UHGV virus genome: UHGV-0097969
Source of the DNA: a virus
Length of the DNA: 45,847 nt
Strand: one strand, 5' to 3'
The notes beneath the pieces are model-generated. The model made no database searches. It saw only the letters and a program-made list of their open reading frames with translations, and was not told the origin of the DNA. A program made the position numbers and the translations under genes. Positions 26,029-38,560 of this stretch are shown here, piece by piece (position 1 is the stretch's first letter; each line of letters starts with the position of its first letter).

Positions 26029-26104
26029 TGGTGGCCCCTACCGGATTTGAACCGATGACCGTGCGATTATGAGTCGCCTGCTCTAACCACTGAGCTAAGG
26101 GGCC
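26029..26104 (-). tRNA. tRNA with CAU anticodon (Ile2 or Met), CCA encoded
   Basis: Reverse complement GGCCCCTTAGCTCAGTGGTTAGAGCAGGCGACTCATAATCGCACGGTCATCGGTTCAAATCCGGTAGGGGCCACCA folds as a cloverleaf (7-bp acceptor, GCTC/GAGC D stem, TTCAAAT T loop); first half resembles ileX-type as recalled. Confidence 0.85.
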
Positions 26105-28258: not shown

Positions 28259-28441
28259 CTACAGCTTATATAAGTGGTTTTTCCAGCGGTTTTGCGCCGC
28301 GCTGGGCTTTTTGCAAAAACCACAATCCATCATCCCGTAATATTTCATCAACCCCATCCGTCGGTTGCTGAGTCTCACCCACTGCCAGACGCCAGGAGCG
28401 TTTCTACGAACTAACAGAATCTTTGCTTTACGGTTTTTCAT
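28259..28441 (-). CDS. hypothetical small basic protein
   Basis: Internal Met of a longer track ORF; overlaps upstream gene end. Confidence 0.25.
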   Translation of the reverse strand: MKNRKAKILLVRRNAPGVWQWVRLSNRRMGLMKYYGMMDCGFCKKPSAAQNRWKNHLYKL

Positions 28442-34199: not shown

Positions 34200-34317
34200 A
34201 CCACGATATGTGGTATTAAAACCACATATCGTGAGTTTTTCAATGGGCGAAACAAAAAATAACCTTCTATTTGTGGTCCACCTCTCGTCTTACCATGTGA
34301 AAACCACTAAATGTGGT
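34200..34317. promoter_or_regulatory. operator cluster ACCAC-N5-GTGGT in the divergent immunity promoter region
   Basis: Perfect sites ACCACGATATGTGGT (34200-34214) and ACCACTAAATGTGGT (34303-34317), partial sites at 34221-34233 and 34272-34280. Confidence 0.55.
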
Positions 34318-36795: not shown

Positions 36796-36819
36796 TAAAA
36801 AAGGCCCCCGAAGGGGCCT
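36796..36819 (-). terminator. intrinsic terminator between convergent units
   Basis: AGGCCCC-cgaa-GGGGCCT stem with T-run on the minus strand. Confidence 0.5.
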
Positions 36820-36824
36820 AATCG

Positions 36825-36947
36825 CTACTTGCTGCTAATGTTTATCGTCACATTCAGAGCGTTATCAGTAATCTTCCAACCCTCCCCATGTGGCGTAAAC
36901 AAAGCTCCAGTAACAACGATAAAAATACACATGTAGTATTTTTTCAT
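36825..36947 (-). CDS. small hydrophobic peptide (40 aa), putative
   Basis: MKKYYMCIFIVVTGALFTPHG...; AAGGG SD; terminator directly after the stop. Confidence 0.3.
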   Translation of the reverse strand: MKKYYMCIFIVVTGALFTPHGEGWKITDNALNVTINISSK

Positions 36948-37261
36948 TGTGTGGCCCTTACAGGCCGTTTCACGGCATCCCCACCGACGAAAATGACGCG
37001 AGAGCAAGCACGCTGTTTGTGCCTGCGTGGTACGGCAAGTGGATAATCCTTTCCTGAAAGTCAGTGCCCGGGTGCGAATCGGCGGAAAGGCCCCAAGCCA
37101 TATTACACGTCATACCCTTCATAATGAAGGAATAAAAAACGCTTTTATTACATAAGATTACACGTAAATAAGTTAAAAACCTTCATTTTGCATGAGCTAA
37201 TGAGCTAAATTTTTTTATATGAATAGTGGACTATTCACCTCAGTTGGGTAAGAATGTAGTT

Positions 37262-37365
37262 GCTGTTTGTGCTTGCGTGGTTGTATTAGTACAACGACGT
37301 TATGCTGAAAGGACCGCGAATCCGATCAGCACGAAAGAACCGTCCTCAAAAGGACGGTTTTTTTG
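37262..37365 (+). ncRNA. candidate small RNA (about 100 nt)
   Basis: Promoter-like TGGACT-N17-AAGAAT (37227-37255), strong terminator ACCGTCCT-caaa-AGGACGGT plus T6 at 37339-37365; 3' end overlaps the stop of the convergent HTH gene. Confidence 0.35.
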
Positions 37366-37918
37366 TTTCTCCCCCTTCCTTCCCAAATGATTCAAATGTT
37401 AATGAGAGTGAATCATTTGATATGTTCGATTTAGCGCCGTTATCGACCCAATTTCTGTATGCTTCATCACAACAGTACCTTACAGCAGTTGGAATAACAG
37501 GAGAGCCGCCCAGAAATGAAAATCCCATTGAGCTTATGCTAATTCTTTCGAATGGCCTATTTCTCAATGCTTCAAATCCCTTGCTGTTGAAGTAACTCAG
37601 CATCAGAGGTAAAAGGTTATCCTCGTCTTGACTGATTGTTCCCGGGAAAAAGTAGTAACCATGGCGATTAAATTCGGGAATCAGTTTTTCTACCAACAAC
37701 ATGAAATTCATTGGGGTAATATTAAGGGCAGAGCAAGCACCAAAAAGAGCATCAACCGTTAATACAGACTGTCCGTTCTCTATCTTTGTCCATGCGTTTG
37801 GTGTTTTTCCAGCAGCTTGAGCCAGCACTCCTTGATGCACACCTCTTTCTAGCCTAAGTTCTTTTATGATCATTAGGTGGATTGTTGAAAAACATGAGTT
37901 TTTTGACGTTTCAGTCAT
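37346..37918 (-). CDS. HTH (XRE-type) regulator with C-terminal domain of unknown function
   Basis: Likely ATG at 37918 (track 37975); divergent from the antirepressor operon. Confidence 0.5.
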   Translation of the reverse strand: MTETSKNSCFSTIHLMIIKELRLERGVHQGVLAQAAGKTPNAWTKIENGQSVLTVDALFGACSALNITPMNFMLLVEKLIPEFNRHGYYFFPGTISQDEDNLLPLMLSYFNSKGFEALRNRPFERISISSMGFSFLGGSPVIPTAVRYCCDEAYRNWVDNGAKSNISNDSLSLTFESFGKEGGETKKPSF

Positions 37919-38056
37919 TTTTTTATCCCCATATTGAATTTTTTCCTTGTTCCCAACTTTAACAAAACACCACAACTCAGGATTGAGTCATTCCCTACAG
38001 GAACTATACATTCCCGTATTTGGTATATCAAGAAAATTAAAAGCTCGGCATTCAAA

Positions 38057-38071
38057 CCCACACTATGTGGT
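38057..38071. promoter_or_regulatory. operator-like site CCCAC-N5-GTGGT upstream of the antirepressor operon
   Basis: One mismatch to the ACCAC-N5-GTGGT sites at the cI/cro region; sits about 25 bp upstream of a TTGACA -35. Confidence 0.4.
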
Positions 38072-38094
38072 TTAGTCTGTTAAAATCCGCCGTA

Positions 38095-38203
38095 TTGACA
38101 TGAATGCGCCATTGGTGGACACTTTCCGAGCCGTAGCAAAATCTACGGTCGGGATTGGAACCCCGTAGACACAATGGCGCATACCGCGTTAGCGGTTTTT
38201 TTA
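38095..38203 (+). promoter_or_regulatory. promoter plus structured leader with intrinsic terminator (attenuator or small RNA) ahead of the antirepressor operon
   Basis: TTGACA at 38095-38100; hairpin CCGTAG-caaaat-CTACGG; long-range GCGCCATTG...CAATGGCGC; terminator ACCGC-gtta-GCGGT plus T7 at 38183-38202. Confidence 0.35.
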
Positions 38204-38368
38204 TGCGTAAAGCACTGCTACACCCAAATTATGGTGGGGCGTGCGGGGGAGTCGTAAGACTCGCCGGTTCGTCATTGTGTCCGGTAGTTCCAACCCAGCA
38301 CGTCTCACCACCCAATGATTGGAACCTGACGGTGGTGAGTATCCTTAACCTTTAAGGGAATCATCACA

Positions 38369-38560
38369 ATGACAAACCTACCCCATGACTATTACGTCAA
38401 CCTCGTAAAGATCCTTCTCAAGAAAGCCTCATACGCCGATAAATTCCGCTTGGCTGAAATAATCGAGCGCGAAGCTATGCGCATCGCCAGCAACGATAAC
38501 GCTGTTTCTGACGCAAAAATCTCCCTCGTAACCAAAGTAGTTATGGGAGGTGCAAAATGA
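38369..38560 (+). CDS. small protein upstream of and coupled to the antirepressor
   Basis: 63 aa, AAGGGA SD; stop overlaps next start (ATGA). Confidence 0.4.
   Translation: MTNLPHDYYVNLVKILLKKASYADKFRLAEIIEREAMRIASNDNAVSDAKISLVTKVVMGGAK

Follow-up and report, generated by a model that had tools for sequence, protein, structure and literature searches.

The ~240-nt leader that lies between a divergent helix-turn-helix (HTH) gene and a 63-codon ORF in the UHGV virus genome UHGV-0097969 (45,847 nucleotides, analyzed as a whole and called the window below) is, in our judgment with high confidence, an IsrK–C4 antisense-RNA immunity module of the P1 immI / N15 immA type that gates an antirepressor operon. 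We make this assignment because the two RNAs match Rfam models in tandem, because the a and b sites that they carry are complementary, and because these pairings covary in 23 loci. The module is of the same type as those of P4 and Gifsy-1 too, with a different protein cargo. The leader is thus a real, conserved, and unannotated member of an already well-understood class of elements, and its variations on that class are minor; the local peculiarities are a b2 target that lies over the AUG instead of the Shine-Dalgarno sequence and a small ORF that is no homologue of Icd.

Tandem IsrK-type and C4-type RNAs ahead of the operon

Scanning the whole window with Rfam returned isrK (RF01394, 67.7 bits against a gathering score of 50) and, 24 nt further downstream, C4 antisense RNA (RF01695, 74.1 bits against a gathering score of 45), the latter matching its model over the full length (model positions 1–87; Table 1). 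A permissive scan added a match to c4-a1b1 (RF03163, which Rfam labels 'a1, b1 targets of C4 antisense RNA') at 38117–38169, with 38.8 bits and an E value of 2.7e-8 but below that model's own gathering score of 46.7. When compared with phage genomes by blastn, the leader matched 174 phage records, the weakest of these matches being to the c4 genes annotated in P1 and in P7 (80% identical along 60 nt). The RNA spanning 38130–38380 had a minimum free energy (MFE) of –100.6 kcal/mol (z –5.2), and none of 200 dinucleotide shuffles folded as well.

The original prediction, made from the letters of the sequence, had described an 'attenuator or small RNA' in an RNA-controlled antirepressor leader resembling P1 immI, and had proposed RNA folding with covariance analysis and an Rfam search as ways of checking it. 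Both checks came out in its favor: the fold is significantly stable by its z score, the pairings are conserved and covary among the 23 loci, and isrK and C4 both score above their gathering thresholds. The resemblance to P1 immI is borne out by the Rfam matches to C4 and isrK and by the conserved order of the parts. The added remark that the sequence was not recognizably P1 immI is contradicted by the scores of C4, isrK, and c4-a1b1 and by the blastn matches to the c4 genes of P1 and P7. The phrase 'attenuator or small RNA' also turned out to be too simple, as there are two tandem RNAs, IsrK and C4, and a second pair of targets at the translation start; the central element, a C4 RNA closed by a 17-bp stem, had been missed.

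Table 1. Features of the leader and of the neighboring genes, in window coordinates.
Feature	Position	Strand	Remarks
Divergent HTH_3 (XRE-type) regulator gene	37346–37918	–	Pfam HTH_3 7e-7; outside the conserved module
Palindrome CCACACTATGTGG	38058–38070	none	Candidate operator, 25 nt 5′ of the –35
TGTTAAAAT, possible extended –10 of a second, upstream promoter	38078–38086	+	Read from sequence
Leader promoter	38095–38123	+	–35 TTGACA 38095–38100, 17-nt spacer, –10 GACACT 38118–38123
IsrK-type RNA (equivalent of the P1 a1b1 element and P4 seqA)	38130–38202	+	Rfam isrK
IsrK hairpin 1	38130–38149	+	96.2% paired, 6/7 pairs covary
IsrK hairpin 2, a1 in loop	38150–38165	+	a1 = UUGGAAC, 38155–38161
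b1 target	38168–38179	+	Inside IsrK, complementary to C4 loop b′
Clamp helix CGCAU/AUGCG around terminator hairpin and U-tract	38178–38207	+	Fold and covariation
Intrinsic terminator	38183–38202	+	Stem 38183–38196 plus seven-U run; terminator scan
C4-type antisense RNA	38227–38315	+	Rfam C4; 17-bp closing stem enclosing two hairpins
C4 hairpin 1	38249–38262	+	97.4% paired, 5/5 pairs covary
C4 hairpin 2	38263–38285	+	Loop = b′ (38266–38281)
a′ = GUUCCAA, single-stranded	38287–38293	+	Complementary to a1 and a2
a2 hairpin, 9 bp	38304–38339	+	Arms 38304–38312 / 38331–38339; 92.3% paired, 4 pairs covary
Small hairpin CCUUAA/UUAAGG	38343–38357	+	Overlaps Shine-Dalgarno AAGGG; present in fold
b2 target CACAAUGACAAACC	38365–38378	+	Covers AUG (38369) and first codons of ORF63
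ORF63, 63-codon leader ORF	38369–38560	+	phrog_7886 (function unknown); P1 icd position
Antirepressor-type gene, 393 aa	38557–39738	+	Pfam ORF6N 1.1e-20, Phage_pRha 1.5e-12

The upstream RNA has what distinguishes the isrK type, namely a promoter of its own, a pair of hairpins, and, immediately 5′ of C4, a Rho-independent terminator. The consensus TTGACA –35 that had been noted in the sequence is present, and across the 23 loci the TTGAC columns of the –35 and the xAxAxT columns of the –10 are invariant or nearly so; both elements align with those of the annotated P1 promoter P1c4 (P51b). The –10 sequence GACACT is weak, and transcription is expected to start near 38130, where the isrK model begins. 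The predicted intrinsic terminator was found where it had been placed, its stem followed by seven U; the IsrK terminator of the window is a weak one. The 'nested hairpins' of the original prediction correspond to an alternative in which the 3′ arm of IsrK hairpin 1 (CUACGGU, 38143–38149) pairs with CCGUAG (38162–38168), a pairing that is used in the MFE structure of IsrK alone, occurs in the phage-plasmid family only, and is absent at other loci.

A helix said to span the terminator is likewise there, formed by CGCAT (38178–38182) and ATGCG (38203–38207). This clamp helix folds alone at –14.7 kcal/mol (z –2.7), is possible only in read-through RNA, and is 90.4% paired across the 23 loci, with both sides changed at four of its five pairs (slid controls, 23–52%). 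Like the a2 hairpin, it lies outside the Rfam models. The C4 RNA folds alone at –42.1 kcal/mol (z –4.6), its closing stem is 99.7% paired with nine covarying pairs in the 23 loci, and the CCACC at its 3′ end is invariant. Transferring the ends of the annotated 77-nt P1 c4 predicts a mature C4 of 38233–38312.

Downstream of the leader, the stop codon of ORF63 overlaps the start codon of the antirepressor gene (ATGA), whose 393-residue product combines ORF6N and Rha domains and matches many anti-repressor PHROGs. BLASTP gave no alignment between ORF63 and P1 Icd and no similarity to N15 gp32, and for the antirepressor the best E value against P1 Ant1/Ant2 was 1.3, with no similarity to N15 gp30. 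Because neither protein is homologous to its P1 or N15 counterpart, the analogy with immI extends, as regards the proteins, only to their positions. At other loci the same RNA cassette is followed by Bro-N, Rha, KilA-type, or 'derepression' proteins, and because such differing protein types follow it, we conclude that the RNA module is conserved and its cargo exchanged; the RNA cassette travels independently of the protein cargo. The antirepressor gene, an intact 393-residue fusion in the window, is broken in close relatives (L023, 1968–3113; L001, 5085–5801): one relative has an ORF6N pseudogene and a separate Rha gene, another the Rha gene only.

Upstream of the leader promoter, TGTTAAAAT aligns with the –10 of P1 P2c4/P51a, within a poorly conserved part of the alignment, and as a second promoter it is a weak lead read from sequence. 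We also observed that the spacer of the leader promoter, ATGCGCCATTG (38104–38114), is complementary at 11 of 11 positions to CAATGGCGCAT (38172–38182), which comprises the 3′ part of b1 and an arm of the clamp helix. This pairing would be relevant only to transcripts from an upstream promoter such as TGTTAAAAT, and no covariation of the two segments was seen. Further upstream, CCACACTATGTGG is a candidate operator, by analogy with Op51 of P1. It is one of six CCAC-N5-GTGG palindromes in the window (at 1168, 34201, 34304, 35055, 38058, and 45051; 0.39 expected), all six of which are intergenic and most of which have ACCAC...GTGGT flanks, and there is an imperfect seventh at 34222–34234. By comparison with the C1 operators of P1, the set looks like the dispersed operators of one repressor.

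Matched target sites and their covariation

The a1 and a2 sites have the same sequence, UUGGAAC, and both are complementary to the GUUCCAA of a′ in C4. The loop sequence GATTGGAACC, which had been reported to occur twice, was found exactly twice, at 38153 and 38317, and because both copies are complementary to a′, the duplication represents the two targets a1 and a2. Taken simply as a 10-mer, the repeat lacks significance (the expectation for the window is 3.2 matches having up to one mismatch); what makes it significant is that it is complementary to 38287–38293 and covaries with that site. The complementarity between a′ and a1 amounts to 7 bp plus 3 bp, that between b′ and b1 to 12 nt with one G–U pair, and that between b′ and b2 to 14 nt at 93% (38266–38279 with 38365–38378), giving a duplex of –18.6 kcal/mol.

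The second a target (38319–38325) is presented in the 18-nt loop of a 9-bp hairpin. The original prediction had recognized this hairpin, which exists and is conserved, but had placed it at 38298–38336, several nucleotides from its true arms (Table 1). The C4 closing stem uses as its 3′ strand the segment that forms the 5′ arm of the a2 hairpin, so that hairpin and stem are mutually exclusive. The small hairpin that overlaps the Shine-Dalgarno sequence belongs to the phage-plasmid family only, and was 42.9% paired across the 23 loci. The b2 site spans –6 to +11 around the AUG in five members of the family; the remaining 18 loci have it at about –22 to –3, where it covers the Shine-Dalgarno sequence.

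Covariation was assessed in a MAFFT alignment of 23 sequences (alignment A1, from which our scripts worked), comprising the window and 22 related loci. These were drawn from four phage-plasmids of the same family; P1, P7, D6, and N15; Stx and other lambdoid phages; epsilon15-like (Uetakevirus) and P88-like (Peduoviridae) phages; and Klebsiella, Citrobacter, and Salmonella phages. The isrK element lay 25–36 nt 5′ of C4 in all 20 of the loci scanned with Rfam, N15 included, and in P1, P7, and D6 the upstream element matched c4-a1b1 rather than isrK. For the Rfam-like structure overall, 90.5% of cells were paired and 25 pairs were changed on both sides, with slid controls at 34–44%. The long-range a1–a′ helix was 90.7% paired with six of seven pairs covarying, and the b1–b′ pairing was 77% paired with both sides changed at 8 of 10 main-helix pairs.

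For a′–a2 and b′–b2, pair counts on the MAFFT alignment were weak, as the a2 loop is gapped and the distance between b2 and the AUG varies. Because the alignment is unreliable at these two sites, we instead compared cognate with permuted duplex energies, pairing the a′ and b′ of each locus with the upstream and downstream segments of its own locus and of every other locus. Cognate duplexes were the more stable in all four comparisons: –13.8 versus –8.3 kcal/mol on average for a′ with upstream segments, about –9.7 versus –7.2 for a′ with downstream segments, –13.8 versus –11.3 for b′ with upstream segments, and –16.0 versus –11.6 for b′ with downstream segments (0 of 10,000 permutations in each case). 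The 23 loci contain 14 distinct a′ heptamers, and each of these has a1 and a2 sites to match. The window shows 18 differences from Yersinia phage vB_YpM_39, of which 14 are located in b1, b′, and b2 (Fisher p = 2e-7); such clustering would be expected if these segments determined specificity, as in the case of P1 and P7. Together, these comparisons demonstrate the parts of the module, their order, their complementarity, and their covariation.

Proposed control of the operon by the leader

How the leader would be expressed, processed, and bound we infer from the characterized systems of P1, P7, N15, P4, and Gifsy-1. By analogy with these, transcripts that begin near 38130 would in part stop at 38202, yielding a short IsrK RNA of ~73 nt. 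In P1, C4 is processed by RNase P, and there is Rho-dependent polarity in icd. In the window, RNase P would cut the read-through RNA at G38233 and trimming after the CCACC at 38312 would leave a C4 RNA of ~80 nt, such that small RNAs of ~70–80 nt are expected from the leader. C4 would then pair in trans with the loop-presented a2 and subsequently with b2, blocking ribosome binding at the start of ORF63, and translational coupling and polarity would keep the plasmid prophage from making the antirepressor. By pairing with a1 and b1, either in the nascent leader or in free IsrK, C4 would provide feedback, acting through termination as in P4 and N15 or through titration of C4 as in Gifsy-1, and the variable a and b sequences would determine the specificity of immunity. 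Counting against this reading are the weak –10, the unrelated proteins of the operon, the placement of b2 over the AUG, and a cis-paired read-through fold that could compete with C4. The P1 c4 work that serves as the source for the P1/P7 mechanism is reportedly that of Citron and Schuster (1990), which PMC3632133 and PMC7313666 cite, and the N15 CA RNA is said to have been described by Ravin et al. (1999).

A reading that is compatible with this explanation but differs from it in emphasis makes attenuation of the P4/N15 type the main mode of control, with C4 bound to nascent a1 and b1 halting the polymerase at 38183–38202, so that both the operon and C4 itself would be under premature termination. 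The position of the best-matched targets fits such a mode, as a1 and b1 lie immediately 5′ of the terminator and the a′ duplexes are more stable upstream (–13.8 kcal/mol) than downstream (about –9.8 kcal/mol); the annotated terminator of N15 (28413–28435) is the IsrK terminator, 5′ of C4; and the mechanism of P4 seqA and CI provides a precedent (PMC4825925, PMC3632133). However, a search of the leader folds for an antiterminator competing with the IsrK terminator found none, which leaves C4 binding with no such pairing to disrupt, and if termination were the sole control, the conserved and covarying a2 and b2 at the translation start would be superfluous. We regard attenuation as the main mode as a reasonable contender that is somewhat more likely to be wrong than right.

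Rather doubtful, in our estimation, is activation of the Gifsy-1 type, in which the read-through mRNA would be closed and untranslatable, with a1 and b1 paired in cis to the C4 core. The most stable read-through fold does pair a1/b1 with a′/b′ in cis (–100.6 kcal/mol, versus –73.6 kcal/mol for the modular fold), so the MFE structure of 38130–38380 is such a closed form, like structure A of Gifsy-1, and this cis-paired fold could compete with maturation of C4. Precedent is experimental, as alternative structures A and B of the read-through RNA were shown for Gifsy-1 (PMC4825925). Carrying a1 and b1, the short IsrK is able to bind C4. The a2 and b2 sites, being of the same sense as IsrK, are unavailable to it for pairing, which counts against activation of this kind. 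In addition, orf45 of Gifsy-1 starts at the conserved AUG of UUAUGGUGG, and in the window that frame closes after just 8 codons, over 100 nt short of ORF63, making the orf45 route inapplicable here. Translational block, termination control, and trans-activation by IsrK are not ranked by our computation and are non-exclusive.

A leader peptide acting as a translational attenuator, encoded either by a 66-codon ORF with a TTG start (38155–38355) or by the orf45-like frame, is very improbable. The 66-codon ORF does span the region, and orf45 has been proposed in Gifsy-1, but the frame from the conserved AUG varies from 8 to more than 71 codons between loci and specifies unrelated peptides, and the substitutions are compensatory in stems rather than codon-like. 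Both coding explanations were therefore rejected, the reading frame not being conserved. Less probable still is an opposite-strand antisense RNA across the ant ribosome-binding site in the manner of P22 sar, which had only the general analogy of the original prediction in its favor and was rejected because Rfam gave no sar match with E values up to 1, because no minus-strand promoter-like site lies within 38130–38400 (the lone opposite-strand site serves the divergent HTH gene), and because the complementarities join segments of one strand.

Returning to the IsrK–C4 module, we entertain, as a speculation that may well not hold, the idea that in this family the leader works as a switch with several states, some of whose features have not been described in P1. 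Were this so, the start codon itself would be sealed by the b′ loop, the conserved hairpin that presents a2 would be in competition with the closing stem of C4, the clamp helix, likewise conserved, would arise in read-through RNA alone, and C4 would be sponged up by the short IsrK. The fast, concerted change of the a/b 'code', with at least 14 types, would then define heteroimmunity groups among otherwise near-identical plasmid prophages.

Distribution of the module and comparison with known systems

The window is a member of a family of ~48-kb Escherichia coli phage-plasmids, which includes pHN68-3 (97.9% identity), pOkiPb01714_2 (100% over the leader), and a plasmid of strain ATCC 25922, as well as the Yersinia phages vB_YpM_39, vB_YpM_41, and vB_YpM_44; a literature search for the three Yersinia phages found nothing. 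The module occurs in 84 of 5426 complete E. coli genomes (~1.5%), mostly on ~48-kb plasmids, and the five related family records that we inspected carry no RNA annotation at the leader locus. A P1-type RNA immunity switch is thus present in ~1.5% of complete E. coli genomes. The finding opens no new question, the mechanism class being known. The three-way covariation amounts to a table of matched antisense and target 'codes', which could predict heteroimmunity of phage-plasmids or supply orthogonal RNA regulators.

Several observations concern the surroundings of the module. There is a mosaic joint at ~38051–38054: for many 48-kb plasmids, identity of at least 98% to the window is confined to the part right of this joint, and because the similarity starts there, the stretch of promoter, IsrK, C4, ORF63, and ant is shared and the HTH gene at 37346–37918 is replaced. 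The minus strand contains, roughly 1 kb upstream of the leader, a full-length Rfam match to ryfA (36797–37095; 134.6 bits against a gathering score of 80), which is also found in relatives L021 and L022 and encloses a small hydrophobic ORF (within 36825–37007, minus strand); this region may be a toxin locus of the RyfA/TimP type carried by the phage-plasmid. The element also carries a tRNA-Met gene (anticodon CAT; 26029–26104, minus strand).

The class of mechanism to which the module belongs has long been known, from 1990 for P1 c4, 1999 for the N15 CA RNA, and 2016 for IsrK. An 'IsrK-C4 immunity system' has been described for P4, P1, P7, and N15 (PMC3632133), and a system of the IsrK–C4 type has been noted in APSE phages (PMC7313666).

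The closest parallel is immI of P1 and P7. The annotated P1 order is P51a/P51b promoters, a1, b1, c4 (77 nt), a2, b2, icd, and ant1, and transfer of P1 coordinates through the alignment places the P51b –35 at 38095–38100, its –10 at 38118–38123, a1 at 38155–38161, mature c4 at 38233–38312, and the icd ATG at 38369. Like the window, P1 and P7 have a promoter, a1, b1, C4, a2, b2, a small ORF, and an ATGA-coupled antirepressor; their C4 RNAs are homologous to that of the window; the elements are plasmid prophages in both cases; and specificity lies in a few a and b nucleotides, as in the heteroimmunity of P1 and P7. The window differs from P1 in that its upstream element is of the full IsrK type with a strong U-tract, whereas that of P1 is degenerate (c4-a1b1 in Rfam); in that b2 covers the AUG and not the Shine-Dalgarno sequence; in that ORF63 is unrelated to Icd and the ORF6N/Rha antirepressor is unrelated to Ant1; and in that a C1-type operator is represented at most by the candidate palindrome CCACACTATGTGG.

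N15 immA (CA RNA, genes 32-31-30) resembles the window in having an isrK–C4 tandem 5′ of an operon of a small ORF and an antirepressor in a plasmid prophage, and differs in that the proteins are unrelated, the a and b sequences differ, and N15 is linear and lambdoid. In N15, we observed that gene 32 ('transcriptional repressor', 28082–28372 in L017) overlaps the C4/CA RNA match (28301–28388) by ~70 nt; because alignment with the other loci points to an ATG 3′ of C4, the annotated start of gene 32 is probably too far upstream. The isrK-orf45-anrP region of Gifsy-1 (STnc1160, Salmonella) shares with the window an IsrK with a leaky terminator, a processed C4-like RNA, an antirepressor, and a closed, cis-paired read-through fold; unlike Gifsy-1, the window has an orf45 frame of only 8 codons, and a separate 63-codon ORF carries the start-site target. 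P4 (seqA, CI RNA/seqB, and seqC), which we compared from the literature only, likewise has a processed, tRNA-like antisense RNA with complementary sites on both sides (PMC3632133, PMC4825925), but it controls replication genes, and does so by termination.
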